This document shows, piece after piece, positions 3,231 through 62,522 of a DNA stretch of 64,000 nt. This stretch comes from Candidatus Saccharimonadales bacterium (GTDB taxonomy: Bacteria > Patescibacteriota > Saccharimonadia > Saccharimonadales > UBA10212): NCBI GenBank assembly GCA_049521895.1, contig JBEKOJ010000001.1:226717-290716 (forward strand). The letters are read 5' to 3'. The position numbers and the translations under genes are program-made. Numbering within the stretch: position 1 is the first letter of the stretch; the number at the start of each line of letters is the position of its first letter. The notes under the pieces were generated by a model that saw nothing but the letters and a program-made list of their open reading frames with translations, had not been told where the DNA came from and made no database searches.

Positions 3231-3999
3231 GGCGGAGCCAGATGCTGGGACCGAAATAAATTGGCGCCAGCAGCGGCTGCAGGCCCTTTTCCAAGCCTAA
3301 AAGCACGTTCTTGCCAAGAACTTTTTTGAGCCGGGGTGAGCGAAGGTTGGAACCGCTTAAAACAGTCTCTACTTCAAAACCAGCTTCGTGAAGTAATTTG
3401 ATAATTGTTTTGGGGTGATGGTTAACAAAAGCTACTTCGCCGGCTTTTTTGCTGGCTTCAGAGCTGATATCTACAGGAGTTTTAGGTACTCTTTTACCGT
3501 GTACGCCGTAGCGCAAACGGTTCAAAAAGTGCGCATCGTTAGCAAACTCCAAAATAAAAGTACCGCCAGGTTTTAGGACACGGGCAATTTCCTTAAACTC
3601 GGCCATCGGGTCCGGCAAATGGTGCAAAACCCGCACTACCAACACTAAATCAACGGATCTGGCCGGCATTTTAAGGTCGGCAGCCTGCAGATGCCTACGT
3701 TCTACTTCCGGCGAGTCTTTTAGATAGATTTTGGCGATGTCCAGCTGCTGCTGGCTGGGTTCAGCCAGCGTAACTTTATCAGCAAAGTTGGCCAGGAACT
3801 TGCTTAAGCGGCCATAACCCCCGCCGACGTCCACGGCGTTGTCAAAATGCCGTCCCTTGAGCAAGCGCTTGATAGCCATCTGCTCGGCGGCGTGCTCGTA
3901 TTCGCGACCGACCCAATAATTCTGGTAGTTGTACTTCGGATCGTCGTACTGGTCCGCCCTTTTGACCACTCTTTTCGCGGCCGGTTTCTTCGACTTCAT
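3217..3999 (-). CDS. class I SAM-dependent methyltransferase
   Basis: 260 aa with VDVGGGYGRLS (motif I) and LKPGGTFILEF. The start abuts the tyrS stop. Confidence 0.8.
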   Translation of the reverse strand: MKSKKPAAKRVVKRADQYDDPKYNYQNYWVGREYEHAAEQMAIKRLLKGRHFDNAVDVGGGYGRLSKFLANFADKVTLAEPSQQQLDIAKIYLKDSPEVERRHLQAADLKMPARSVDLVLVVRVLHHLPDPMAEFKEIARVLKPGGTFILEFANDAHFLNRLRYGVHGKRVPKTPVDISSEASKKAGEVAFVNHHPKTIIKLLHEAGFEVETVLSGSNLRSPRLKKVLGKNVLLGLEKGLQPLLAPIYFGPSIWLRLKKR

Positions 4000-5244
4000 C
4001 TATTCTAATTCTATCAAAGCGGAGTCCTTGAAAGCTTTACCACGGCGCAGCAGCAGCCGGCCATTTTGAAAATCGTTAGCTTCAAAATTCTCTCGGTTAA
4101 CAGATTGCCCATTGACATAAACCGCGCCGTTTTGCAGAAGCCGCCGGGCATCAGAATTTGAATCGGCTAACTTTGTTAATGCCAGTGCTTGGATGATAGA
4201 GCCTCCGGCTTGGGTTGACACGGCGGGGATTTCATTTCTTAGCTCTTCGAGGTCTGAATCAGTCGCTTCTCTAATAGATACTTGACCTGTTAAGTATTCC
4301 GAGGCACCCGTCGCTGCTTTGCTTGGTTCCTCTCCGTGTGCCAACTCGGTCACTTTTTCGGCCAACAGCTTTTGCGCAACTCTTTTGGCAGTATCAGCTC
4401 TGTGCTGTACCATCGCACGGTCTATTTTTTCTCTAGGCAGCAGAGTGAAGACTTTTAGATAGTCTTCGACATCAGCATCATCAGTATTGATCCAAAATTG
4501 ATACAATTGCGTGGGTGTAGTTTTGACCGGATCAAGCCAGACAGTTTCTTCCTCACTCTTGCCAAATTTGCGGCCGGTAGTTTTATTAATAACTAGCGGC
4601 ATGGAGAATGCGTGAGCCTCCTGGTTCTCTTTTTTGCGGATTAGGCTGACGCCCGAGAGCATATTGCCCCACTGGTCTGAGCCGCCAATCTGCATAACTA
4701 CACCGTGGTTTTTGAAAAGGTGCCAAAAGTCGTAACCCTGTATCAGGGAGTAGCTAAACTCGGCGTAGCTAATTCCGGAGCCTTCGGCGCCCATACGCTC
4801 GGTTACAAAATCGCGCTGCATCAGTTCGGTCATCGAGAAATGTTTACCGACATCGCGCAAAAAATCGATATATTTGAGCCCGGAAAGCCAATCATAATTA
4901 TCTGCAGCAGTAAAGTGCTCACCCGCAAACAAGTTGGCCACCTGCTTCTTTATAATTTCAATGTTGGCTTTAATCTCTTCGCGCGGTTTTAGCTCGCGCT
5001 CTTCGACTTTACCGCCGGGATCGCCGACTAAACTGGTGCCGCCGCCGGCCAGCAAAACGGCCTTCCAGCCGCCGTCAATCAAGCGCCTGGCCAGTAGCAA
5101 AATGGCTAGGTTGCCAACGGTTAAACTGTTGGACGAGGCGTCAATCCCTAAATAGAAAGTCTTGGGGCTGTCCAGCCAAGCCAACTCAGCAAAAGTTTTA
5201 TCTTTGATTAGCCCTCTCCAGGCTAGATCTTCGCTTAGGCTCAT
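4000..5244 (-). CDS. tyrS: tyrosine--tRNA ligase
   Basis: 414 aa with a class I fold, a KFGKS (KMSKS-type) loop, a C-terminal S4-like domain, and GGSDQWGN. Confidence 0.95.
   Translation of the reverse strand: MSLSEDLAWRGLIKDKTFAELAWLDSPKTFYLGIDASSNSLTVGNLAILLLARRLIDGGWKAVLLAGGGTSLVGDPGGKVEERELKPREEIKANIEIIKKQVANLFAGEHFTAADNYDWLSGLKYIDFLRDVGKHFSMTELMQRDFVTERMGAEGSGISYAEFSYSLIQGYDFWHLFKNHGVVMQIGGSDQWGNMLSGVSLIRKKENQEAHAFSMPLVINKTTGRKFGKSEEETVWLDPVKTTPTQLYQFWINTDDADVEDYLKVFTLLPREKIDRAMVQHRADTAKRVAQKLLAEKVTELAHGEEPSKAATGASEYLTGQVSIREATDSDLEELRNEIPAVSTQAGGSIIQALALTKLADSNSDARRLLQNGAVYVNGQSVNRENFEANDFQNGRLLLRRGKAFKDSALIELE
4279..4296. repeat. iterated palindrome copy (TACTTGAC-CT-GTTAAGTA)
   Basis: One G.T position. 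The copy lies inside tyrS in a different reading frame from the other coding copies (GAA TAC TTA ACA GGT CAA GTA). Confidence 0.6.
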
Positions 5245-5395
5245 AAGCTATCTTTCAGCAAAATTGTCATTACTTATATATAAGTATAGCGCAGGATTAA
5301 CACTTACAAGGCTACAAATTTCAAGACATCCATTATAGAGCTTATGCCAGCCGCAGATTTGCTATAATGTCCATGAAGAGGAAAATTTTTAGTTA

Positions 5396-18665: not shown

Positions 18666-18782
18666 TGAAAAAAATTGTTCTCCAATTTTTTTAGTGTGTA
18701 GTTGATAGTTTTTAGTTAGTGGTTTTTGGGCTTGTTATTCACTACAAATTAAGCACTATCAACTATTTAATGATAGCATGGA

Positions 18783-20882: not shown

Positions 20883-21448
20883 TTCTGAGCCTCGGCTAAA
20901 ATTTGTAGTGGCTTAAAACTCATGCGGTGGACGCCCTCTAAAATACCGTGCTGCTCAATCGCCAGCTTGTGGGCGGCCGTACCATAGCCAACATGATTCT
21001 CGAAACCATATGCCGGATAGCGCTTTTTGAGCTTGCCCATATAGCTATCCCGGCGAACTTTAGCAAAAATTCCGGCGGCCGACACAAGCGGGATTAGCAC
21101 GTCGGCGTCAACCAGACACTTAACATTACTAAAGTGCGCCGGTACGTAATTTACCTTGCCATCCATAATAATTTCTTCGTCAATTTGGGCTTTGAGCATC
21201 CTTAGCGCTCTGGCTATGCCTAATCGTAGCGCGATTGCTAAGCCCCGGCTATCTATTTCCGCGACGTTTACCCAGCCCTCGCCAAATTCACAACAACTAC
21301 TTAACGTGTTAAGTATTTGCTGTCTTTGCAACTTGGTCATAAGTTTGGAATCTTTGAGCCCAAGCGGCAAGTCAGCTTTGGCCCGCACTGCTACTACCAG
21401 CAGTGGGCCAGCCCAACAACCCCGCCCCACTTCATCTACCCCTATCAT
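20879..21448 (-). CDS. rnhB: ribonuclease HII
   Basis: 189 aa starting MIGVDEVGRGCWAGPL, with DSK and a later D residue, matching the RNase HII pattern. Confidence 0.9.
   Translation of the reverse strand: MIGVDEVGRGCWAGPLLVVAVRAKADLPLGLKDSKLMTKLQRQQILNTLSSCCEFGEGWVNVAEIDSRGLAIALRLGIARALRMLKAQIDEEIIMDGKVNYVPAHFSNVKCLVDADVLIPLVSAAGIFAKVRRDSYMGKLKKRYPAYGFENHVGYGTAAHKLAIEQHGILEGVHRMSFKPLQILAEAQN
21298..21315. repeat. iterated palindrome copy (TACTTAAC-GT-GTTAAGTA)
   Basis: Perfect 8-bp arms inside rnhB, reading CTT AAC ACG TTA AGT = LNTLS. Confidence 0.7.
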
Positions 21449-21499
21449 AAGTCTAATGCTTGCTCATTTATCACTGCTGGGCTTATTATATCCAACATT

Positions 21500-26096: not shown

Positions 26097-26099
26097 AAA

Positions 26100-26117
26100 T
26101 ACTTAACTTGCTAAGTA
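26100..26117. repeat. iterated palindrome copy (TACTTAAC-TT-GCTAAGTA)
   Basis: One mismatch. Flanking AAA/TTT extends the arms. The copy directly abuts the dnaE stop codon and may double as a weak terminator. Confidence 0.6.
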
Positions 26118-26120
26118 TTT

Positions 26121-29100
26121 TTACCTCACTACTACATTAGTAGAACCGAAGATGTCCGCCAAAGCTCTAAGGCTAGACTCGTTAATACTGATAGTCTGCG
26201 GCAATTTTATGACTTGCTTAGCGGACGGTGCTCCAGTCACCAGAACAACCTCAGTCTCCCCTCTATGATCGTCGAGTTTTTCTTTTAGCGTTAGTAACAA
26301 TGATTGGTTAGCGCTGTTTTCTAACCTTATGTAAAGTCGCTGTTTGGATATAGGCGGCTCGTATTGGCTTGCTTGGGTTTCTTCTGGCGGGGGTATATTC
26401 TTGCTGCTCGGCTGAAACTCCGAGGCTTCTTTGATGGATACTAGTTGGATTTCATCGGCGAGTAATTTTAGCTCACTATCGTCGCGCGACCCGCGCCCAC
26501 CGCCCAGCTTGCCTTTGACTATGACTACTTGGTCGCGCTGGAGCGGCTCAGTCAAAGTTTGATAAGCCCTAGGAAAAACCACCACTTCGATTTCGCCAGA
26601 TTTGTCGGCAATACTGATAAATGCCATTTTAGCGCCGTTTCTGGTAACAATGTCGCGCAAGCTGACAATTGATCCGCCAAGTGCCAGGCTACGGCCGTCC
26701 ATCTCCGGTGTAATAAACGATATAGGCGCAGTTCTTTCCGCCAAAAGGGCCTCGTAAGCTTCAAGCGGGTGATGGCTGAGATATAGCCCAAGTAGCTCTC
26801 TCTCCCAATTCAGCTGTTCTGCCTGCGGGTATTCAGCTGCGCTCTTATCAAGCACCAGTTTGACAGCCAGATTCTGGTTATCGCTATCTTCGCTAAATAA
26901 ATCTACCTGGCCGGAGCTGGCGTCTTTTTGCAAACGCGACGCAAAAGCTTGCATATTTTCTATGTTATCGAACATCTGCCCGCGTTCGCCAAAGCCGTCA
27001 AGCGCACCGGCTTTAATCAAGCTTTCGAGGGCTTTACGGTTAACGATATGGGCGCTGACTGTGCGTAAGAAGTCTTCTAGTTTTTCAAACTTCCCCCCAA
27101 GTACTTCACGGGCACGTAAAATTTCTTCTACAGCTCCATGCCCGACATTTTTTACAGCATCTAGACCAAAACGGATCTGATTTTTCCCTGGAACAATACC
27201 AAATTCATGGAAAGATTGATTAACATCCGGCGACAAGACTTCAATGCCCATATTCTTGCATTCGGTAATTTCAATAGCCAAGCGATCAGTATTATCGTAA
27301 TCGCTAGTCATTAGCGCCGCCATGTAAGCTGCCGGATAATTGGCCTTGAGATAAGCTGTCTGATAAGCAATCAAGCCATAGCAGGCTGAGTGCACCTTGT
27401 TAAAACAGTAGGCGGCGAATTCTTCCAATTGCGTCCAGAACTTCTCCATGGCTATGCGGTCAGCTCCGGAATGTTTAATAGCTCCATCTATAAATTCTTT
27501 TTTCATCTTGGCTAGAACCTCAGGGATTTTCTTGGCTATACCTTTGCGCAAGGTATCGGCCTGGCCGCCGGAGAAACCACAGAGGTCTTTGCTGATTTGC
27601 ATAACCTGCTCTTGGTAAACAATTACACCATAAGTATTCTCCAAGGCGTTTTTCATGACAGGATGCAGATACTCGATTTTTCTAAGGCCGTGCTTGCGAG
27701 CTATAAAATCGTCGATCCATTGTATTGGCCCTGGGCGGTATAGCGCGACCATGGCTACGATGTCTTCGAAAACCGTCGGTTTGAGTTGCTTGAGGTAGCG
27801 GCGCATGCCAGCCGATTCCAGCTGGAAAACACCGGTGGTTTCACCTTTTTGCAACAGTTCAAAGGTCTTTCTATCGTCCAGTGCGATCTCAGCGATGTCG
27901 ATATCCTTTTTATAGACCTTTTTAATAATCCGCAGGGCATTTTTAATAGTTGTAAGGTTGGATAGCCCTAAAAAGTCCATTTTAAGCAACCCCAATTCTT
28001 CTATCGGCCCCATGGAATACTGGGTTGCGATAACACCTTTCTGGGCCATTTCAAGCGGTACAAATTTGACAATATCGTCTGGTGCAATAACTACACCAGC
28101 AGCATGCACACCATGGCTGCGGATTGTTCCTTCCAACTTTGTGGCCAAGTCAAATACACGGGCCGATTGCTGGTTAGTTTCGTTCTCGACTTTGAGTTCC
28201 GGAACCTGTTTTAAGTGCACCTTTAGCGGCGTATGGCGGCCCTGCACTGGCGGCGGGATCATTTTGGCCAAGCGATCAGCTTCTGCATAAGGCACTTGTA
28301 ATACGCGCGCCACATCGCGCACCGAGTTACGCGCCGCCATGCGCCCAAAGGTCACAATGTTGGCAACCCTGTCGCGACCATATTTTTCAACGCAATAATT
28401 TATGACTTCGTCACGTCTGGAGTCCTGGATATCTATGTCCATGTCCGGCATACTGATGCGGTCAGGGTTAAGGAATCGCTCAAACAACAAGTCGTAGCTT
28501 AGCGGATCGATCTCAGTAATACGCAAGCTGTAGGCCATAATGGAACTGGCCGCGCTACCCCGGCCGGGGCCAAACACGATTCCCCTGTCTTTACCCCAAT
28601 TGATAAAATCGGCTACGATCAGAAAATAGCCATTAAATTCCATCTTGTCCACAATACCCAGCTCATAGTTGGCGCGGGTAATCACATCACCACGGAGAGT
28701 TTTCTTGGCTTGGTTAATGGTTAGCTGATCTGCTTGGGCGCGACTCCTACCACCGTAGCGCCAGGCTAAACCTTGCCAGACTTTTTTTTCTAACAGGCTC
28801 TTCTCGGTCTCGTTTTTGGGTGTGGGAAATTTAGGGATTAAGATCTTACCTAACTCAATTTCAACTTTGCAACGCTTGGCTATAGTCTTGGTATTGGTAA
28901 TCAACTCCGGATGGTCCGGCCCCCAGCGTTTAACTATATCTTTGGGGTCCGCTACGTAGAGTTCGAAGTCTTTGAGGCTGAAGCGATTCTCGTCAGATAA
29001 GAAGGCGCCTGTTTGTACGCATAACAAAATCTCATGGGCTTCTTGATCCTCGTGCTTTAAATAGTGGGCATCGCATGTAACCACCGCCGGTATATTAAGT

Positions 29101-31958: not shown

Positions 31959-32042
31959 AGTTTGTAGTTTGTAGTTTGTAGTTTGTAGTAGAAAAAGCAA
32001 AAAGATTACAACTGTAAACTGTAAACTGTAAACTGTAAACTG
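31959..32042. repeat. heptamer tandem repeats (AGTTTGT)x4 ... (ACTGTAA)x4
   Basis: Block 31959-31988 and block 32011-32042 are separated by 22 nt. On the plus strand the two blocks can pair using 5 Watson-Crick and 2 G.U pairs per heptad. Confidence 0.7.
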
Positions 32043-32045
32043 TTC

Positions 32046-35209: not shown

Positions 35210-37168
35210 TTACAATTTGGCTCTGACTTCACCGATTAGGTCACGTAACTCGGCGGCTTTTTCGAATTCCAGGTTGGCGGCCGCCAGATCCATCTGGGAG
35301 GTCAGGTCGCGGATCAGGAAGTTATATTCATCTTTGGGTATTTTACGCAGATCCAACTTTGGCTTCGCTGCCTTTTCGGCTCTTGGCAGCAGTTCATCCA
35401 CGGCACGCACGATACTGCGGGGTGTAATACCATGGCCTTTATTATATTTCCCTTGGACCGCCCGGCGGCGGTTAGTCACATCAATGGTGCGTTGCATGCT
35501 GCCAGTCACCGTATCGGCGTACATTATCACCCGTCCCTCTTCGTGGCGGGCTGCCCGGCCGACGGTCTGGACCAGTGCTTGCTCGCTGCGTAAAAATCCT
35601 TCCTTGTCAGCATCTAAGATTGCTACTAGGCTGACTTCTGGCAGGTCCAGCCCTTCCCTAAGTAAGTTGATACCGACCAGTACGTCATAAACTCCCAGCC
35701 TAAGGTCGCGTAAAATATCGGTACGGTCTAGGGTATCGATCTCGCTGTGTAGGTATGCAACTTTTACGTCCAGTTCCTTCAGGTATTCGGCTAAGTCTTC
35801 CGACATGCGCTTGGTTAATGTTGTCACTAAAACACGTTGAGCTTTGCCCACTGTCGCGCGGATCTCGGCAATCAGGTCGTCAATCTGCCCATCAATCGGC
35901 CGGACTTCAATTTTAGGATCCAGTAGGCCGGTTGGCCGGATGATTTGCTGGACCGGTTCCGGGCTGCGCGATAGTTCGTACTCGGCAGGTGTGGCGCTGA
36001 CGTACACAACTTGGTTCATATGGCGCTCAAATTCAGAAAAAGTCAGCGGCCGGTTGTCCAGTGCCGAAGGCAAGCGGAAGCCATATTCCACCAGCACCTC
36101 TTTGCGCGAACGGTCGCCGTGGTACATACCTCGGACTTGCGGAATGGTCATGTGCGATTCGTCCACGAACATCAGGTAGTCATCCGGGAAGTAATCTAAC
36201 AGAGTAGCGGGTTGCTCGCCAGCTTCGCGATTGGTCAAATAACGGCTGTAGTTTTCGATACCTTTCACAAAGCCGGTCTGCTCCAGCATCTCCAGGTCAA
36301 ATTTGACACGCTGCTCCAAGCGCTGGGCTTCCAGCAGTTTACCTTGTTTTTTAAACCAAGCTCCTCGCTTATCGGCTTCCTGGCGGATTTTAACCAGCGC
36401 TTTTTGGAGTTTTTCTTGCGGTGTAACGTAGTGGCTCCCTGGGAAAATACTTAACTCGTTAAGTGTTTTTTCTATCTCGCCGGTCAACGGATTAATTTGG
36501 TTCATGCGTTCCACTTCATCGCCAAAAAATTCAATCCGATAGGCATTTTCTTCACCTGCTGGGAAAACGTCCACGACGTCTCCCCTGACCCGGAAATTGC
36601 CACGCTCAAAGGCCATATCATTCCGGCGGTACTGGATATCTGTTAGCTGCCTAAGTAGTTTGTCGCGCAGTCGCCGCTCGCCGACTTTAAGCCTAACAGC
36701 CATATTGCCGTAATCTTCCACCGAGCCAATGCCGTAGATACAAGATACAGAAGCCACAATAATCACGTCGTTGCGCGACAGCAGTGCACTAGTTGCGGCG
36801 TGACGCAAACGGTCAATTTCTTCATTGATATCACTGTCTTTCTCGATATAAGTGTCAGAACGGGGCATATAAGCTTCCGGCTGGTAATAATCAAAGTAGC
36901 TAACAAAGTAGTGCACAGCATTATCCGGGAAAAACAGCCGGAATTCATTATAAAGCTGCGCGGCCAGAGTTTTGTTGTGGCTCAGTACCAGCGTCGGTTT
37001 CTGGGTATTTTGGATCAGGTTAGCCATAGTAAAAGTCTTGCCGCTGCCGGTCACACCCAGCAGCACCTGATTCTTGGCACCGGCTTTTAGTCCCTCGGTC
37101 AATTTAGCAATTGCCGCCGGTTGGTCGCCCGTCGGCTTATAGTCGCTCCTCAGTTTGAACTTACTCAC
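35210..37168 (-). CDS. uvrB: excinuclease ABC subunit B
   Basis: 652 aa with Walker A GVTGSGKT, helicase motifs including DESH, and a C-terminal UVR domain ([15 protein letters not shown]). Confidence 0.95.
36448..36465. repeat. iterated palindrome copy (TACTTAAC-TC-GTTAAGTG)
   Basis: The copy lies inside uvrB and reads CTT AAC GAG TTA AGT = LNELS. Flanking AAAA/TTTT extends the arms to 12 bp with one T.G position. Confidence 0.65.
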
Positions 37169-40482: not shown

Positions 40483-40564
40483 CCCAGTAGTGAGCTTTCG
40501 AGATTATCCGTAAAGCGGATATTTAGCCCGCAAAAGCGGGCTGACTTGAAAGTCTACTACTGGG
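40483..40564 (+). mobile_element. ORF-less CCCAGTAG-terminus element (82 nt, three-way junction form)
   Basis: Sequence: CCCAGTAGTGAGCTTTCGAG...CTTGAAAGTCTACTACTGGG. The internal hairpins are ATCCG-TAAAG-CGGAT and AGCCCGC-AAAA-GCGGGCT. TAAG flanks both sides. Confidence 0.7.
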
Positions 40565-43616: not shown

Positions 43617-43772
43617 CCCAGCAGTGAGCTTGCGAGATTATTCGATTCCCTTGGAGCCGTCAGCTCGTCAGCATCTCTTACGAAGACTGTAAGTCGGGAA
43701 CAGTTATGTTAGCGAGGCCTCGAATAATTAGCTCATGCGAGCGATGAGCTGACTCGAAAGTCTACTGCTGGG
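43617..43772 (+). mobile_element. ORF-less CCCAGCAG-terminus element (156 nt, expanded hairpin)
   Basis: Sequence: CCCAGCAGTGAGCTTGCGAG...CTCGAAAGTCTACTGCTGGG. The termini co-vary (T-A changed to C-G). The hairpins are ATTATTCGA-[69 nt]-TCGAATAAT and AGCTCAT-GCGAGCG-ATGAGCT. TTT flanks both sides, and the right terminus overlaps the rpe stop codon. Confidence 0.7.
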
Positions 43773-44406
43773 TTTCGTCGGCGATGCGTTGCAGAGCCGC
43801 GAAAGCCCGCGCCGGGTCTTCAGCTCTTTGGATATAACCGCCAACGTTTAGTACGTCCACGCCACCATTTATTAGCTCAGCAACATTTTGGTCATTAATA
43901 CCACCGTCCCAGCCCACTTCCAAATCAGGTTTATACTGTTTCAAAATACTTAACTTGTTAAGTAATTTAAGGTCGGCGTGGCTGCCGGTTTGGTAACCTA
44001 AATTACCGGAGAATATCAACACGTGGTCAATACTACTTAGCGCCGGCAGGATTGTTTCAGCCGGTGTCCGTTGCAACAGTGCCACACCAACCCCTACTTC
44101 ATGACGGTGGCAAAAGTTGGCAATATCCTCAAAACCGCCTTCGGCTTCGGCGTGAACTATTATCAGATTTGGCCGGTGCTCCATGATAGTTTGAACAGCT
44201 GGCATTGGATGGCGGTACATGAGATGAAAATCGGCTTTAACCCCCACCGGCCACCAAGCTTGCTCGGGCCTAACGGTACGGCTGGGTGCAAACTGCCCGT
44301 CTGTTAAATCAATCTGGATACGCTGGGCAAAATGGGCTATCTTGGCTATTTGTTGTCTGTATTCTTCTTCGCTGCCAGCTAAAATTGCCGGGCAAATAGT
44401 CGGCAT
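43762..44406 (-). CDS. rpe: ribulose-phosphate 3-epimerase
   Basis: 214 aa with a TIM-barrel pattern (ICPAILA, DLTDG, HLM, VHAE, GWDGG). The last codons, ACC CAG CAG TAG, are contributed by the inserted element terminus. Confidence 0.85.
   Translation of the reverse strand: MPTICPAILAGSEEEYRQQIAKIAHFAQRIQIDLTDGQFAPSRTVRPEQAWWPVGVKADFHLMYRHPMPAVQTIMEHRPNLIIVHAEAEGGFEDIANFCHRHEVGVGVALLQRTPAETILPALSSIDHVLIFSGNLGYQTGSHADLKLLNKLSILKQYKPDLEVGWDGGINDQNVAELINGGVDVLNVGGYIQRAEDPARAFAALQRIADETQQ
43947..43964. repeat. iterated palindrome copy (TACTTAAC-TT-GTTAAGTA)
   Basis: Perfect 8-bp arms inside rpe, reading CTT AAC AAG TTA AGT = LNKLS. Confidence 0.7.
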
Positions 44407-52552: not shown

Positions 52553-53574
52553 GGGAATTGCCTCAGGAATTTTAGATTGCCGCTATGAAAGTATCGAATG
52601 TCTTCGATGCCATACTTAAGCATCACTAGGCGATCTATGCCAAAGCCCCAAGCGAAACCGGTGTAAATTTTCGGGTCAATACTGCCTTCGCGCAGGACGT
52701 TCGGGTGGATCATGCCACAGCCGCCAAGCTCTATCCAGCCAGTATAGCTGCAGATATTGCAGCCTTTTTGGTCGCAGAAAATACAGCTGGCAGCGAATTC
52801 AAAACTTGGTTCGGTGAACGGGAAATAGAATGGTTGGATTTTGATTTTTATATCTTTCTGGTAGTAAGCGCTTAGCCAAGTTTTGATGGTTGCGACCAAG
52901 TGACCGGCATTGATGCCTTCATCGATATAAACGCCTTCCAGCTGATAGAAAGTGTGCTCGTGTCGGGCGTCAAGATCCTCGTTGCGGAAGACCCGGCCTG
53001 GTATGACAACGCGGATCGGCGGTTTTTGGCTTTTCATCACGCGGTTTTGCATGATGCTGGTGTGCGCCGGTGCAATCAGCCCTTCAGTAGTTACAAACGT
53101 GTCATACTCGTCGCGGGCCGGGTGCTCCGGCGGAAAATTCAGGCTGCTGAACATGTGGTAATCATCGTCAATCTCGCGTGATTCTACTACCGAAAATCCC
53201 ATCCGACCAAAGATATCTAAAATAATCTTTAATTCGGTGTTAATAGGGTGGCGGCTGCCGTTTTTGGCTGGCAATAACTCAGGGCGTTGGTCGACTGGAG
53301 TATTAATATCAAACGGCGCAGTAACATCGATAGTTTGTAGTTTGTAGTTTGTAGTTTGTAGGGATTCTCGAGTCAGGGATTCTAGGTCGGATTTGAGGTG
53401 ATTTACTTCTTTGCCAAAATCAGCTCGCGGCTTACCTGCCGGCAAAGTTTTAAGCCGGTCGTATAAAGCTGCCATCTCTGGTGCGCGTAAAATTGCCCGC
53501 TTATCTTCAAGCTTAGCAAGCTTATCTTTCAGCTGTTTGGCAGCCTTTGCGATCTCGGGATTTTTATACTCCAT
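52549..53574 (-). CDS. pheS: phenylalanine--tRNA ligase alpha subunit
   Basis: The start was trimmed to MEYKNPEIAK. Class II motifs are present (FRNEDLDARHEHTFYQLEG and GFAWGFGIDRL). The (TAGTTTG)x4 repeat at 53332-53361 encodes LQTTNYKLQT. Confidence 0.95.
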   Translation of the reverse strand: MEYKNPEIAKAAKQLKDKLAKLEDKRAILRAPEMAALYDRLKTLPAGKPRADFGKEVNHLKSDLESLTRESLQTTNYKLQTIDVTAPFDINTPVDQRPELLPAKNGSRHPINTELKIILDIFGRMGFSVVESREIDDDYHMFSSLNFPPEHPARDEYDTFVTTEGLIAPAHTSIMQNRVMKSQKPPIRVVIPGRVFRNEDLDARHEHTFYQLEGVYIDEGINAGHLVATIKTWLSAYYQKDIKIKIQPFYFPFTEPSFEFAASCIFCDQKGCNICSYTGWIELGGCGMIHPNVLREGSIDPKIYTGFAWGFGIDRLVMLKYGIEDIRYFHSGNLKFLRQFP

Positions 53575-53646: not shown

Positions 53647-54969
53647 ATGGCTATAGACGAGTCAAAACTGCTGGATGAGGCCAAGAAAGTTCTGGCGCAC
53701 AATGACCGCAAAAAATGGACAGTCCCGGCAGGTGATTTATATCCGCATCAGTGGCTATGGGACAGTTGTCTTATTTCCATCGGTTTGCGGCATCTTGATA
53801 TCGACCGGGCGCAAATCGAATTGACCAGTCTGCTACAAGGCCAATGGAGCAACGGTATGCTACCGAATATAATTTTCTCAAGCGATGATAAGTACCACCG
53901 CGACCGCGAACTTTGGCGTAGTTATGTCAGTCCTTACTCGCCCGACAAGGTAGCCACCAGCGGTGTCACCCAGCCGCCGCTGTTGGCGGAGGCCGTAGTG
54001 CGCATTGGCCAAAAATTAAAGCAGCCAGAACGTCGCACTTGGTACAGGCAAATGTACCAGCCGCTAATCGAATATCACCAGTGGCTATACCGCGAGCGCA
54101 ATCCACACAATGAGGGCCTGATCGTTCTCCTGCATCCTTATGAAGGCGGTCTAGATAACGCTCCGCCTTGGATCAGCGAGCTCAGAAAACATAACATGCC
54201 TTTTTGGCTCACCCTAGTTGAAAAAGCCCACCTTGGTGGCATAATCGGCTTAGCCAGACGAGATACGCAGCATACAACCTTGGCCCAACGTATGGACAAC
54301 ATCGAAGCTGCGGCTTATTGGGCATCTATGCACCGTCTGCGGCGCAAAGCTTATAATAGCGAGGCTCTCTTTTCCCGTTCGCTTTTCACTGTGGAGGATC
54401 TGGCTTTCAACTGTATCTTGATCCAAGCCAATACCCGTCTGGCTGAGATAGCTAAGACCATCGGGCAAAAATTGCCAGACAATTTGGTACAATCGATACA
54501 CAAAACTGAATCCGCTCTGGAGCAACTATGGGATGAATCTACAGGCCAGTATTACTACCGTAGTTTTATTAGCCATAAACTGATAGAAGAATCGACTATT
54601 GCTACACTGCTGCCACTTTATGCTGGCTCAATCAGCAAAGACCGGGCCAAACAGCTGGTGGAATTACTCAATAGGCCCAAGCAGTTTGCGACTAAGTGGC
54701 CGGTGCCTAGTGTCCCCGCTAGTTCGCCATATTTTAATCCGTTTCGATACTGGCAAGGGCCAACCTGGATAAACACTAATTGGCTAATCATCGAGGGTCT
54801 TGGACTATATGGTTTTAGTAAAGAGGCAGCGTCGCTGCGCCAAAAAACTCTGGATTTAGTAGCCAAAAGCGGCTTTTACGAGTACTACAATCCTCTAACT
54901 GGCGAACCGGCCGGAGCCGCCAATTTTAGCTGGACCGCCGCCTTAATCATTGATTTATTGAAAGACTAG
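53647..54969 (+). CDS. (alpha/alpha)6-barrel glycoside hydrolase, GH63 / mannosylglycerate hydrolase / debranching-enzyme-like
   Basis: 440 aa with LWDSCLISIGL, HPYEGGLDNAPPW, YWQGPTWINTNW and EYYNPLTGEP.GAANFSWTAA. Confidence 0.7.
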   Translation: MAIDESKLLDEAKKVLAHNDRKKWTVPAGDLYPHQWLWDSCLISIGLRHLDIDRAQIELTSLLQGQWSNGMLPNIIFSSDDKYHRDRELWRSYVSPYSPDKVATSGVTQPPLLAEAVVRIGQKLKQPERRTWYRQMYQPLIEYHQWLYRERNPHNEGLIVLLHPYEGGLDNAPPWISELRKHNMPFWLTLVEKAHLGGIIGLARRDTQHTTLAQRMDNIEAAAYWASMHRLRRKAYNSEALFSRSLFTVEDLAFNCILIQANTRLAEIAKTIGQKLPDNLVQSIHKTESALEQLWDESTGQYYYRSFISHKLIEESTIATLLPLYAGSISKDRAKQLVELLNRPKQFATKWPVPSVPASSPYFNPFRYWQGPTWINTNWLIIEGLGLYGFSKEAASLRQKTLDLVAKSGFYEYYNPLTGEPAGAANFSWTAALIIDLLKD

Positions 54970-56030
54970 TCTTCTTCAAGATTGGGTTTATCTAGCAGCA
55001 TCGGCTCCACGGACGGTTCCACTTCAGCAATTTTAACAATGTCTTTATCGATTTTGCCCAATTCCTTATAGGTAGTATTGAAGTGTCCGACGGTTGTGTT
55101 GAGACTACCGCCTAGCTTTTGCATATAGCCGTAATGTGATACTAAATGTTTCTGTAACTGCTCGATATTTTTACGGATTCTTTCAGTGTCCTGATTAATC
55201 TGTATAGACCTCATACCTTGAATGATAATCTGTAAGTTTGCTGCGAGCGTGCTGGGGCCAACGATCGTGACCTTTTTTTCAGCAGCCGCATATTGGATGA
55301 GGTTTCTGCTGTTCACGCCCCCAGCACCAACTTTGTTAGCTAGTAAGTCATAGTAAATGCCCTCGCTAGGGATATACATAAAAGCTTGGTTAAGGGTGCC
55401 CCTGTTGGGTTTTATATACTTGGCTGTCTCGTCGATACGCTTTTTAAGGTCTTCTTTAAAGACACGCTCCAATGCTGGCTTTTCTTCGGGTTTGGCTTCA
55501 ACTAGCCGATTATAGTTTTCCAAGCTGAATTTACTGTCAACTGGAATCAGTTTATCGCCAAATTTTATAACTGCATCGACAATGAGACCTTCACCTAATT
55601 TATACTGGAGCTCATAAGTACCCGGAGGCAACATGTTTTTTAACGCTTGTTCCAGATAGAACTCGCCCAGAACACCTCGCTGCTTAGGGTTCTGTAGGAC
55701 ATTTTGTAGAGTTTTTAAGCCGTCTGCTACGTCTCCCACGCTCTTGTTGGTTCGTTCAATCTCCGTTAGCTGACGTGTTACTTCTTGAAGAGTTTTTATA
55801 TTCTGACCATGTTGCACGCCCATTTGTTTGTTGCTACTACTAAGTTGTTCGCTCAGTTGTTTTTGCAGACTGTCTTTAAGCTGGGCCATGCCTTTGGTGA
55901 GCTCCGTCATATCGGCCTTTAGCAGCATCGTGGCGTCAGAGCCGGTCTTTCTTGGCCGGGCGAAGTTCCAAAAAACAAACCCAGCCAGGGCTACGCACAA
56001 AACCGCCAAAATAATCACCGCCACAATCAT
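54966..56030 (-). CDS. rmuC: DNA recombination protein RmuC
   Basis: 354 aa with an N-terminal TM segment, a coiled coil, and a C-terminal nuclease-like region (DSKFSLENY, FMYIPSEG). Confidence 0.9.
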   Translation of the reverse strand: MIVAVIILAVLCVALAGFVFWNFARPRKTGSDATMLLKADMTELTKGMAQLKDSLQKQLSEQLSSSNKQMGVQHGQNIKTLQEVTRQLTEIERTNKSVGDVADGLKTLQNVLQNPKQRGVLGEFYLEQALKNMLPPGTYELQYKLGEGLIVDAVIKFGDKLIPVDSKFSLENYNRLVEAKPEEKPALERVFKEDLKKRIDETAKYIKPNRGTLNQAFMYIPSEGIYYDLLANKVGAGGVNSRNLIQYAAAEKKVTIVGPSTLAANLQIIIQGMRSIQINQDTERIRKNIEQLQKHLVSHYGYMQKLGGSLNTTVGHFNTTYKELGKIDKDIVKIAEVEPSVEPMLLDKPNLEED

Positions 56031-56031
56031 A

Positions 56032-56155
56032 CCCAGTAGTAGACTTTCTGTTGGCTATTCGCCAAAACTTACTTACTTCTATATTTTACCTGCCAAGTAT
56101 AGCTTTGTTATATACACTGTTCACTGCGAAACAGCACAGAAAGCTCACTACTGGG
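56032..56155 (-). mobile_element. ORF-less element, apparent internal-deletion derivative of the GIY-YIG copy
   Basis: The minus strand reads CCCAGTAGTGAGCTTTCTGTGCTG...AGCCAACAGAAAGTCTACTACTGGG. The subterminal sequence matches 58349-58661. It is flanked by CATG on one side and TATG on the other, and the TATG holds the rmuC start codon. Confidence 0.7.
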
Positions 56156-56164
56156 CATGCCTAT

Positions 56165-56170
56165 ATTGTA
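56165..56170 (-). promoter_or_regulatory. putative -10 box TACAAT (original rmuC promoter, leaderless type)
   Basis: On the minus strand, TACAAT-ATAGGC-ATG now leads into the inserted element. Confidence 0.4.
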
Positions 56171-57444: not shown

Positions 57445-57460
57445 CGTGTTCTTAATTATA

Positions 57461-57547
57461 CCCAGTAGTAGACTTTTGAGCGAGCCCGCATGTCTGCGGG
57501 CTCATATATCCACCGGGGATGGATAATCTCAAAAGCTCACTACTGGG
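57461..57547 (-). mobile_element. ORF-less CCCAGTAG-terminus element (87 nt, three-way junction form)
   Basis: The minus strand reads CCCAGTAGTGAGCTTTTGAG...CTCAAAAGTCTACTACTGGG. The hairpins are ATCCATC-CCC-GGTGGAT and GAGCCCGC-AGACAT-GCGGGCTC. TATAA (TTATA on the plus strand) flanks both sides. Confidence 0.7.
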
Positions 57548-57554
57548 TTATACC

Positions 57555-58280: not shown

Positions 58281-58333
58281 GGGCTAAAGCATAAACAAAG
58301 TGCTAATATATTTGCAAATTTGTCGCAAAAATA

Positions 58334-58339: not shown

Positions 58340-58345
58340 ATTGAT

Positions 58346-58660
58346 ATGCCTAGTAGTGAGCTTTCTATAGTGTTCTGCTATGTCTACGTTTTATACTCTA
58401 ATGTCAGCAAGAGCTTCTATGTAGGTTTTACGCATGATCTTAAGAAGAGGATTGCAGAACACAATAAGGGCTTAATTTTTTCTACAAAAGGCTATAAGCC
58501 CTGGGAGTTAATTTATTACGAGGCGCATGCTAAAGAGGCAGACGGCAGACGCCGTGAAAAATATCTAAAGACCACGGCAGGGGATAGAGCTTTACATAGA
58601 ATGCTTAGAGGGAAGCTGACTGAGGTGAAAAATTTAAGCCGACAGAAAGTCTACTACTAG
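58346..58660 (+). CDS. GIY-YIG nuclease family protein (small COG2827/UPF0213-like)
   Basis: YVYVLYS-x6-FYVGFT-DLKKRIAEHNKG...ELIYYE...REKYLKT matches the GIY-YIG pattern. The tracked ATG (58346) is the duplicated host start codon, and an internal GTG at 58370 is an alternative start. The stop TAG lies inside the right terminus. Confidence 0.85.
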   Translation: MPSSELSIVFCYVYVLYSNVSKSFYVGFTHDLKKRIAEHNKGLIFSTKGYKPWELIYYEAHAKEADGRRREKYLKTTAGDRALHRMLRGKLTEVKNLSRQKVYY

Positions 58661-58661
58661 G
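58349..58661 (+). mobile_element. ORF-bearing CCTAGTAG-terminus element (GIY-YIG nuclease cargo)
   Basis: CCTAGTAGTGAGCTTTC...GAAAGTCTACTACTAGG encloses a single ORF. A TATG direct duplication flanks it (58345-58348 and 58662-58665). Confidence 0.75.
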
Positions 58662-58662
58662 T

Positions 58663-59079
58663 ATGCAACACAACACTCTTAAAGCGCTTTTAAAGAAAGA
58701 CGGCGCCAGTCTGACTAAGCCACGCAAAATCGTATTTGACCTGTTACTCAACCAGGAGCCACAGAGTATGAAAGTTTTGACCCAGAGGGCTGCCGGCAAA
58801 GTTGACCGGGCGACCGTTTATCGCACCGTGGAGCTATTTGAGCGTTTAGGTATTGTCCACCGCTTAAATATCGGCTGGAAATATAAAATGGAGCTAAGTG
58901 ACGTATTTCATGCCCACCACCACCATTTTTATTGCACCAATTGCAATAAAACATACCCCTTGCCCGCCAACCCTATGCTAGAGACCATGATAGATAGCAC
59001 GGTGGCCAAGGACGGTTTCTCGCCACGCGGCCATCAACTAGAAGTTTACGGCCTATGCGCCCAGTGTTCTCGCGGCTAA
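58663..59079 (+). CDS. Fur family transcriptional regulator (Zur-like by context)
   Basis: 138 aa with a winged helix, then HHHHFYCTNC and CAQC metal sites. It is divergent from zupT. Confidence 0.85.
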   Translation: MQHNTLKALLKKDGASLTKPRKIVFDLLLNQEPQSMKVLTQRAAGKVDRATVYRTVELFERLGIVHRLNIGWKYKMELSDVFHAHHHHFYCTNCNKTYPLPANPMLETMIDSTVAKDGFSPRGHQLEVYGLCAQCSRG

Positions 59080-61826: not shown

Positions 61827-62522
61827 CTATTTAAGCTTATTCTTGTCAACTATTATTACCTCGTAGCCGGGTTGTTTTTTAATGAATTCAACGCAGGCAA
61901 GACCCATAACAAAACAGGCTGTCGCTAAGACGTCGGCTTTGATGATGTCCGGCCCGGTGACTGTCAGGCTCAGTAGCTCATTGGCTGGGCGGCCGGTTTT
62001 AGGATTAATGATGTGCTTACCGCGCTCATAAGTACCGCTGGTGGCAACCGCCCCGTTCGAAACACTTAGCGTGTTAAGTATTTTTGATTTATTGCGCGGA
62101 TCCTGAATACCAATATTCCAAGTTTTGGCACTGTTGGAGCGCGCCAGAATATCGCCGCCGGCGCCGATACAATAAGTTTTATAGCCGGCCTTTTCTATCG
62201 CCTTCCCCGCCTCCTTAATTCCGTAACCTTTGACATAGCCGGTAGGGTTAAATTTGCCTTCAAAATGCGCCGAAAAGTAGCCATCCGTGTATTTTTCCGC
62301 CTGTTTGCAGGCCCGTATGACTCGTTTCATCTCCCTGCTTAAGTCTGATTCTTTGATTTCGCCGCGCCTGAATTTACTGAGTTCACTGGCTGGCTTATAG
62401 GGGCTAAAGCGATTATCAATAGCCTCCAAACACCTAAAAGCAGCGATAAACGGCGCCTCAGTGCGGGCAGCTGGAATATCAATGCTGATGGGCAGACCCA
62501 TAATGAATTCGACGCGTCTCAT
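61827..62522 (-). CDS. apbE: FAD:protein FMN transferase (ApbE family), short form
   Basis: 231 aa with MGLPISIDI, IGAGGD, ATSGTYERG and ADVLATACFVMG. Confidence 0.85.
   Translation of the reverse strand: MRRVEFIMGLPISIDIPAARTEAPFIAAFRCLEAIDNRFSPYKPASELSKFRRGEIKESDLSREMKRVIRACKQAEKYTDGYFSAHFEGKFNPTGYVKGYGIKEAGKAIEKAGYKTYCIGAGGDILARSNSAKTWNIGIQDPRNKSKILNTLSVSNGAVATSGTYERGKHIINPKTGRPANELLSLTVTGPDIIKADVLATACFVMGLACVEFIKKQPGYEVIIVDKNKLK
62063..62080. repeat. iterated palindrome copy (CACTTAGC-GT-GTTAAGTA)
   Basis: Two changes relative to the consensus. The copy lies inside apbE and reads CTT AAC ACG CTA AGT = LNTLS. Confidence 0.55.

Follow-up and report, generated by a model that had tools for sequence, protein, structure and literature searches.

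The window analyzed here is a 64-kb stretch of a Saccharimonadales genome (contig JBEKOJ010000001.1), and coordinates given without a locus number refer to it. Its minus strand carries the rmuC gene (54966..56030), whose ATG (56030-56028) begins a 354-aa open reading frame (ORF) with a Pfam RmuC match (E 1.8e-51) and agrees with the starts of orthologues, which read ATGATTGTGGCGG in L124 and L125 (L-numbers denote loci of other genomes or plasmids compared in this analysis). This start codon is occupied by a 124-bp element bounded by 20-bp terminal inverted repeats (TIRs), referred to below as E3 (56032..56155, minus strand). Read along the minus strand, the locus consists of TACAAT (56170-56165), ATAGGC, an ATG (56158-56156), E3 and T-ATG-ATT-GTG, the second ATG being that of rmuC. 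E3 itself reads CCCAGTAGTGAGC...CTACTACTGGG (56155-56032), with the left TIR CCCAGTAGTGAGCTTTCTGT at 56136..56155 and the right TIR ACAGAAAGTCTACTACTGGG at 56032..56051. The TACAAT hexamer resembles a -10 element located 6 nt 5′ of the upstream ATG, and may act as a leaderless-type promoter of rmuC. Frame-0 translation from the upstream ATG yields a 16-codon ORF, MPSSELSVLFRSEQCI followed by a stop codon (56108..56158, minus strand), which is a remnant-like readout of the left TIR; it begins with the same 7 residues as a GIY-YIG ORF located at 58346-58660, next to fur. The flanks, element ends, T-ATG junction and remnant ORF are all as the initial annotation described them.

E3 is one of five complete elements of the same family in the window, to which the census of the host genome was confined. 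The exact 13-mer terminus occurs three times, each time with a cognate right end, and looser matching brought the number of complete copies to five. E5 (58349..58661, plus strand) is a 313-bp full-length element that encloses, TIR to TIR, the whole GIY-YIG ORF (58346..58660, plus strand; Pfam PF01541, E 2.4e-16). It is flanked by target-site duplications (TSDs) TATG at 58345..58348 and at 58662..58665, the ATG of the downstream copy being the fur start codon, as is also apparent from the empty fur sites of relatives. The other four copies are gene-less: two short miniature inverted-repeat transposable elements (MITEs), namely the 82-bp E1 (40483..40564, plus strand, TSD TAAG) and the 87-bp E4 (57461..57547, minus strand, TSD TATAA), a 156-bp MITE, E2 (43617..43772, plus strand, flanked by TTT), and E3 itself. 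E4 folds as a Y and is inserted between zip and ykuD, inside a TATAAT box. A sixth candidate, at 21396-21481, was rejected, having a 9-bp inverted repeat and no family termini.

The flanks of E3 read c/tATG. By analogy with the exact 4-bp TSDs found elsewhere, CATG at 56156..56159, with the ATG that opens the 16-codon ORF, can be taken as the upstream TSD copy, and TATG at 56028..56031, with the rmuC start codon, as the downstream one. Thus, the single T between the right terminus and the host ATG, pointed out as a shared feature of the fur and rmuC loci, is no spacer but the first base of a 4-bp TSD of the form NATG (TATG at fur, c/tATG at rmuC). The common geometry holds: at fur, TACAAT-ATTGAT-ATG is followed by the element and T-ATG, and the 16-mers that end with the duplicated ATG, CTACAATATAGGCATG and ATACAATATTGATATG, are identical at 12/16 positions. 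The initial annotation also assigned E3 to the same subfamily as the fur element. The two are indeed insertions of the same kind and geometry; however, E3 belongs to a separate, non-coding lineage of 124-130-bp copies. These share a TTGGC-N-GCCAA hairpin beside the right TIR that coding elements do not have, which sets them apart as a distinct lineage, and E3 is not merely a truncated fur element.

Relatives were sought by scanning one genome per species with a 16-mer of the left terminus, and the figures given below refer to the matches listed; a metagenome scan with a deliberately narrow pattern contributed 6 loci. Matches outside Patescibacteria were mostly due to chance. The imperfect TIRs of ca. 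20 bp (left CCYAGTAGTGAGCTTTC, right GAAAGTCTACTACTRGG) bound all five window copies and at least about 30 complete elements in other Saccharibacteria/Patescibacteria contigs. These fall into size classes of 30 bp (minimal), 71-94 bp, 124-130 bp, ca. 156 bp and 312/313 bp. The GIY-YIG gene is the only ORF found between these TIRs, and among about 35 TIR matches in Saccharibacteria/Patescibacteria loci no element with them exceeds 313 bp. Exact 4-bp TSDs flank 14 short copies (for example, TTTA, CAAG, CAAC, TAAA, TTGA, TTGG, TTAG, CCTG, CAGG and CTTG) as well as most coding copies. A 660-bp candidate in L012 and lone TIR matches in L038, L069 and L079 were rejected as chance, and the L065 match is a genuine copy truncated by the locus edge. 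The best-supported reading is that E3 is a non-autonomous, non-coding member of an insertion sequence (IS)-like family found across Saccharibacteria.

Comparison with relatives revealed sites without elements. In L124, whose RmuC is 79% identical to that of the window, the fur site reads ...TTACAATTTTGCTAGA-ATGCAT, i.e., TACAAT-N9-ATG, the rmuC site reads TATAAT-TAAGAT-ATGATTGTGGCGG, and a single TATAA occupies the position of E4, versus two flanking E4 in the window. Both the fur and rmuC sites are also empty in L144 and L146/147 (RmuC 74-75% identical). E3, which is missing from these three remoter lineages, is unchanged in four strains with 97%-identical RmuC. At the E4 site, these strains instead have another, rearranged element of 63 bp. 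The empty sites in relatives, together with the presence of E3 in close strains, indicate that the insertions arose within this lineage and that the family is still changing.

The 63-bp element between zip and ykuD (L120 3500-3575, also L121-L123; window 57456-57552) has right-type termini at both ends (CCTAGTAGTAAAC...GTCTACTACTGGG). In L120, the terminus supplies the zip stop codon (GCC-TAG-TAG, ~3505-3512), and the TCTAAGGTATAA stretch is missing. It is a strain-level rearrangement of an element. In L146/L147 (2226-2500), an additional 275 bp lie before rmuC, together with a Shine-Dalgarno-like AAGGAG and a GTG start codon, which is not a layout of the leaderless type.

Coding elements, whose proteins are 63-85% identical, precede different genes. 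Besides fur in the window, where the element lies in the sense orientation, they were found at ftsA (L097, L050), a comM-like gene (L063), a membrane-protein gene (L126), tig (L128), a HAD hydrolase gene (L129-134), a kinase-like gene (L135), rarA (L136/138), a pgi-like gene (L140), a small membrane ORF (L141), argS (L142) and an xerC-like gene (L143); a more divergent element abuts the ATG of alaS (L047). The 124-130-bp non-coding copies are located at rmuC (window), ftsA (L047, L139) and rplS (L088). Taken together, these make 15 host genes (16 with the divergent alaS copy) in many genomes, so the association with start codons, suggested initially by two loci, goes well beyond a coincidence of two out of two. 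At all these sites the element is in the sense orientation, ATG ends both flanks and the downstream ATG is the host start; the flanks are mostly TATG, once GATG/GATG, and three times differ in the first base. By comparison, 41 of the 214 ATGs of the window that are either non-coding or starts are called gene starts (0.19 per site), versus 15-16 out of 15-16 observed. One short MITE of the other type is likewise found at an NATG start, in the sense orientation and 6-11 nt downstream of a -10-like hexamer.

The association is also seen at the protein level. Among the best 120 homologues of the GIY-YIG protein, Met immediately precedes PSSELS nearly wherever the called protein includes that N-terminus, and this holds for homologues with a longer called N-terminus too. 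For three proteins called from an internal start the DNA was checked, and in all three TATG abuts the left TIR. Homologues of both the RmuC and GIY-YIG proteins of the window retrieved in protein searches carry Saccharibacteria or Saccharimonadales names.

As to the TACAAT-N6-ATG context, proposed initially as a preferred target, recognition of the hexamer was not borne out. Start-codon sites carry a TAnnnT hexamer 6-11 nt upstream, most commonly 6-7 nt. The same TAnnnT-N6-11-ATG arrangement precedes about 19 gene starts in the window and is found at the empty fur and rmuC sites of relatives, and it therefore cannot be counted as a target. A promoter scan at fur identified TTGCAA-16-TACAAT, ending 6 nt before the upstream ATG. 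TACAAT-N6-ATG is thus largely the arrangement usual in this organism for promoter-proximal genes that are apparently leaderless. What stands of the proposed target-site preference is the placement at start codons of such genes, which may stem from targeting, selection or both. The shared target TATAA|TATAATTAAG of E4 and the L094 element indicates that the same -10-box site was struck in different genomes.

The sequence TATTTGCAAATTTGTCGCAA (58308-58329) is conserved just 5′ of the fur -10 box in four lineages (window, L124, L144 and L146) and overlaps the -35 position. It is probably an autoregulatory Fur operator, in which case the GIY-YIG ORF of the window would be iron/Fur-regulated along with fur.

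The 312/313-bp form encodes one single-domain GIY-YIG nuclease of 96-104 aa, with both ends of the ORF inside the TIRs: in E5, the left TIR provides the first codons and the right TIR the last codons and the stop. Counted from the ATG of the TSD, the E5 protein has 104 residues, of which residues 11-78 constitute a single Pfam GIY-YIG domain; the AlphaFold2 model (pLDDT 82) likewise shows one domain, with UPF0213 and the nuclease domain of Slx1 as the nearest folds. Slx1 is a branched-DNA nuclease. Codon 9 is GTG or ATG in 12 of 13 elements and aligns with Met1 of canonical relatives (codon 9-11 in the profile alignment). MPSSELSx can therefore be regarded as a TIR-encoded extension, with the canonical N-terminus at GTG codon 9 in the window, and either start may serve. 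For 11 coding elements, nonsynonymous divergence pN is 0.21 versus a saturated synonymous pS of 0.82, indicating that the protein is maintained by selection. The stop codon of the element precedes the host ATG by 2 nt (TAG-GT-ATG), overlaps with it (ATGA) or follows it at a distance of 5 nt, and all three arrangements would be compatible with translational coupling. A comparison of the Saccharibacteria profile with a 94-aa GIY-YIG protein of Rhizobium flanked by SRM repeats (see below) gave a probability of 98.3% in hhalign (E 2.4e-14), a figure to be read bearing in mind that small GIY-YIG proteins are all related; among PDB entries, the best matches are UPF0213 and Slx1. A search of a phage collection with the window protein found no relative, and a plasmid search revealed only distant ones, Ssn-type genes of Rhizobiaceae with 35-39% identity.

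The ends of the elements are conserved as DNA. In the 11 coding elements, hardly any variation is seen in the outer 18-19 nt of either end, third codon positions included, and yet the right TIR is read in different frames in the 312- and 313-bp versions (QKVYY* versus RKSTTGYA*). The two TIRs differ at three fixed positions (GAG versus AGA), which on the top strand form G.U, A.C and G.U; because of the G.U pairs, the sense strand folds better (-49.5 versus -40 kcal/mol for E1). Positions 17-20 of the left and right ends covary (CTGG/CCAG, CTGT/ACAG, CTGC/GCAG, CCTTC/GAAGG). Short MITEs fold as a Y, a stem with two hairpins, with compensatory pairs and invariant top-strand G.U pairs. Such covariation and the one-strand G.U pairs are evidence for a folded single strand.

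Several further copies illustrate how the termini combine with host DNA. The smallest element (L025 ~5254-5283, minus strand) consists of two termini only, CCCAGTAGTGAGCTTTGCTCTACTACTGGG, and is about the size of an Ssn-type hairpin repeat. The ~155-160-bp class has the same termini in five genomes (window 43617-43772, L012 2415-2569, L063 7041-7196, L094 3559-3718 and L144 4956-5112). Whichever strand is read, one frame of the termini contains stop codons (CC-TAG-TAG-TGA; CC-CAG-TAG-TAG), so insertion into the 3′ end of a gene costs few residues; the right terminus of E2 (43762-43772) provides the final codons and stop of the ORF at 43762-44406 (minus strand). At L093 (6616-6692), a short MITE of 77 bp occupies a TATG start and keeps the reading frame of the host gene (77 + 4 = 81 nt); translation from the upstream ATG would extend the product, a secreted-looking protein, by 27 residues (MPSSELSRIRLRRLTRVASRLESLLLG). 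At the ftsA start in L050 (7244-7645), an 86-bp short MITE in reverse orientation, CCAA and a 312-bp GIY-YIG element are found jointly inside one TATG duplication, and L097 has the GIY-YIG element alone at this site. The L050 arrangement could be a composite unit or the result of a second event at one site. Its GIY-YIG ORF has no upstream ATG, and codon 9 is ACG rather than GTG.

How would such an element live at a start codon? The closest precedent for its enzyme is the Ssn family (cd10448), 94-aa single-domain GIY-YIG proteins that cut only single-stranded DNA (ssDNA) beside a directional hairpin repeat, NTS/SRM (Chenal et al., Nat Commun 2025, PMC11893778). By analogy, the GIY-YIG protein would be the mobilizing enzyme and would act on the TIR stem or the Y-shaped fold in ssDNA, as Ssn enzymes do on their hairpins. 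With host genes that, judging by sequence, are leaderless, transcripts would begin at one copy of the duplicated ATG, which opens the frame of the element, and the second ATG, right after the right TIR, preserves the start of the host gene. The element ORF stops inside or just past the right TIR, 0-5 nt from the host ATG, so that termination-reinitiation could give translation of the host gene. E3 at rmuC has no coding part, and a 16-codon ORF is all that is left. More speculatively, a nuclease specific for ssDNA might cut the chromosome where it is melted, for example in an open promoter complex, whose downstream edge would coincide with the start codon of a leaderless gene.

We consider it probable that this is an IS-like family whose sole gene found is an Ssn-like nuclease, whose TSD is usually 4 bp and of which E3 is a non-coding member. 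A more ambitious version, in which the 312/313-bp unit is an autonomous transposon with the 96-104-aa GIY-YIG nuclease as its only protein, the smallest autonomous DNA transposon and the first with TIRs and TSDs to be GIY-YIG-driven, is a tentative proposal that we would sooner doubt than accept; such a transposon would actively target the start codon or transcription start of leaderless genes, for example through cuts in the single strands of the open promoter complex, and would borrow the promoter, start codon and ribosome of the host and return the ribosome by coupling. There is nevertheless a substantial chance that the family is the first documented GIY-YIG-driven transposon.

A number of observations weigh against this picture. 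The length of the TSD varies (3 bp at E2 and L063, 5 bp at E4, L094 and L108), and the first TSD base is unequal between copies at E3 (c/t), L128 (a/c) and L136 (t/g). The short ORF of E3 stops 78 nt before the rmuC ATG, so coupling cannot account for rmuC expression. Short MITEs with the same outer TIRs occupy many non-ATG sites, so ATG specificity is not inherent in the insertion chemistry; the ATG rule might stem from selection for expression, and some of the 124-130-bp copies could, to judge from ftsA, have descended from coding copies at the site they occupy. Enzymes of the GIY-YIG type cleave by hydrolysis, and none is known to catalyze strand transfer or to transpose DNA. Since Ssn enzymes cut only ssDNA, this activity alone does not explain a 4-bp duplication. 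Finally, with 64 kb of the genome in view, a separate transposase may be encoded elsewhere.

The last point leads to the main rival explanation, in which the copies would be ordinary MITEs mobilized in trans. A conventional transposase, such as a DDE enzyme of a family with 4-5-bp duplications, would be encoded elsewhere in the genome or in a partner organism, the GIY-YIG gene would be a passenger or addiction module that happens to occupy one MITE lineage, and the start-codon placement would follow from selection for expression of this passenger. TIRs with 4-bp TSDs are the classic signature of DDE transposition, and the non-ATG sites of short MITEs, the lack of a GIY-YIG enzyme known to transpose DNA and the coverage of 64 kb out of a genome of at least 770 kb all count in its favor. 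Yet nothing longer than 313 bp turned up among the TIR matches, and the GIY-YIG ORF fits the space from one TIR to the other and has stayed under purifying selection in different species and at many sites. In addition, Ssn homologues in other phyla are also bracketed by inverted repeats of their own (PMC11893778, and Rhizobium and Shinella here), and covariation and one-strand G.U pairs favor a folded strand over two independent duplex sites. We therefore regard a trans-acting transposase as rather unlikely, though it has to be taken seriously. Much less probable is a free-standing homing endonuclease gene that spreads by cutting empty alleles followed by recombinational repair, with the repeats and ATGs incidental. 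Many homing endonucleases have GIY-YIG as their catalytic domain, the NCBIfam match to group I intron endonucleases is weak and below threshold (24.8 bits versus a cut-off of 56), and, as with many homing genes, the elements adjoin conserved, often essential genes (ftsA, alaS, argS, rplS, tig). However, the protein of ~96 aa has one domain and no DNA-binding module, homing makes neither TIRs nor TSDs and cannot shift an element between unrelated genes, and non-coding copies with TSDs at unrelated sites point to transposition-like insertion.

One can also imagine that E3 is not mobile but is a host regulatory RNA, in which a 5′ stem-loop and an upstream short ORF control rmuC. Its strand folds strongly (computed -45 kcal/mol, z -6), G.U pairs favor the sense strand, the ORF stays open up to the host ATG in two of the four 124-130-bp copies (E3 is not one of these), and there are promoter-like hexamers within E3. 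But presence and absence vary among related genomes with target bases duplicated, the repeat also has copies at unrelated genes and, in either orientation, between genes, no Rfam 15 family reached the gathering threshold anywhere in the window (whole-window scan, 0 matches), and promoter-like matches in the E3 region did not exceed those in shuffled sequence (6 versus 4.1 +/- 2.0). This explanation is thus the least probable of all, although E3 may have been co-opted secondarily for regulation. Within E3 (56083-56123, minus strand) there are two σ70-like hexamer pairs, TGAACA-16-TATACT and ATAACA-17-TAAAAT, which could drive rmuC with a 50-65-nt leader.

For the IS-like family, the placement at start codons would reflect mechanistic targeting, strong selection for expression, or both. 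Targeting is favored by the non-coding copies, which at three different genes are also on TATG starts, and by the lack of a coding copy away from start codons among the copies examined. Selection is favored by the fact that the element has neither a promoter nor a start codon of its own, and by ftsA, which has coding copies in some species and non-coding ones in others, suggesting decay in place. Two further possibilities were considered. That the ATG is a part of the element and not a TSD is not favored, as short copies duplicate 4 bp of many sequences; for the coding lineage, this reading is less firmly rejected. Insertion that simply follows transcription start sites is insufficient alone, since nearly every coding copy examined has an ATG, yet some promoters are leadered (rmuC, L146).

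Placement right on the start codons of promoter-proximal genes would allow a gene devoid of a promoter and a start codon to be expressed with the host gene left intact. For annotation, it means that such copies yield spurious short ORFs and alter the reading of first operon genes in genomes of the Candidate Phyla Radiation (CPR).

Other repeats were noted in the window. Runs of a 7-nt unit (AGTTTGT/TTTGTAG) occur in four intergenic places (721-824, 18693-18765, 31959-32044 and 53331-53366), partly facing each other in inverted orientation (31959-31988 versus 32012-32044), and represent a second repeat family unrelated to the TIR elements. A 24-26-nt palindrome, AAATACTTAAC-N4-GTTAAGTATTT, is present at seven places (1866-1888, 4276-4301, 21295-21320, 26097-26122, 36445-36470, 43944-43969 and 62060-62085) and might represent operators, terminators or another small repeat. 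Two copies of a 56-nt direct repeat (84% identical) occupy 11759-11814 and 12438-12493, 679 bp apart. A scan for tRNA and tmRNA genes returned none.

Small stand-alone GIY-YIG proteins are very common, and their role is mostly unassigned. The literature searched contained no description of bacterial GIY-YIG elements with TIRs or TSDs, nor of start-codon insertion, but several known systems share some of the features described here. Like the bacterial MITEs (Correia/NEMIS, RUP and Rickettsia palindromic elements), the non-coding copies are 70-160 bp long, have TIRs and TSDs, form strong hairpins and are multicopy in intergenic DNA or gene ends; the L093 copy, like Rickettsia palindromic elements, would add an in-frame extension, here an N-terminal one. 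Known MITEs have a DDE-type IS partner or no known partner, whereas the only coding partner found here encodes a GIY-YIG nuclease, and one Saccharibacteria lineage is restricted to start codons. The REP/BIME-RAYT system resembles the family in having a small nuclease gene between inverted copies of a proliferated structured repeat, with recognition of folded ssDNA as the likely logic in our case; unlike RAYT and IS200/IS605, the enzyme is GIY-YIG and not HUH Y1, and TSDs are present, whereas IS200/IS605 makes none. T4 Seg/Mob and I-TevI-type homing genes share the GIY-YIG catalytic domain and the habit of selfish genes wedged by conserved host genes, but differ from our elements, in which no DNA-binding domain was found and which have TIRs, TSDs, non-coding derivatives and many unrelated genes as targets.

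The closest known system is the Ssn family. The ssn genes are commonly flanked by repeats on both sides, and NTS-ssnA-NTS has been called IS-like and likened to REP/RAYT (PMC11893778). An IS-like origin or transposition was put forward there as a hypothesis only, and neither TSDs, empty sites and start-codon placement nor CPR bacteria were reported for Ssn (PMC11893778). Two plasmid loci compared in our analysis, from Rhizobium (L148 1273-2390) and Shinella (L149 1357-1954), carry a 94-aa Ssn-type GIY-YIG gene between inverted repeats of ~100-139 nt; in Shinella, each repeat arm is composed of two inverted SRM hairpins. More SRM copies are present at both loci in tandem-like arrays, and an IS4 transposase gene lies beside the Rhizobium locus. 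The published SRM pattern HGTCWYN(0-2)YYVSBRHN(0-5)WNVSBRGN(0-2)RNCYNB matched five times around the Rhizobium gene and four times around the Shinella gene, bracketing both genes in inverted orientation, with 0 matches in the window and 1 match, unrelated to an element, in 38 Saccharibacteria loci. As in Ssn, a single-domain GIY-YIG nuclease of ~94-104 aa is encoded, the gene is bracketed by inverted structured repeats that also occur in many copies without it, and the repeats are strand-asymmetric, like the directional NTS. Unlike in Ssn, where the repeat is a self-contained 30-nt hairpin on each side, the two arms of the Saccharibacteria elements pair with each other over the full length of the element and thus place the gene in the loop, the gene ends lie within the repeats, and ssDNA cutting is a prediction. 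The TIRs, TSDs, empty sites and non-coding derivatives of the Saccharibacteria elements are direct evidence at the genome level that they are mobile, which makes the mobile-element hypothesis for Ssn testable with a 313-bp construct.

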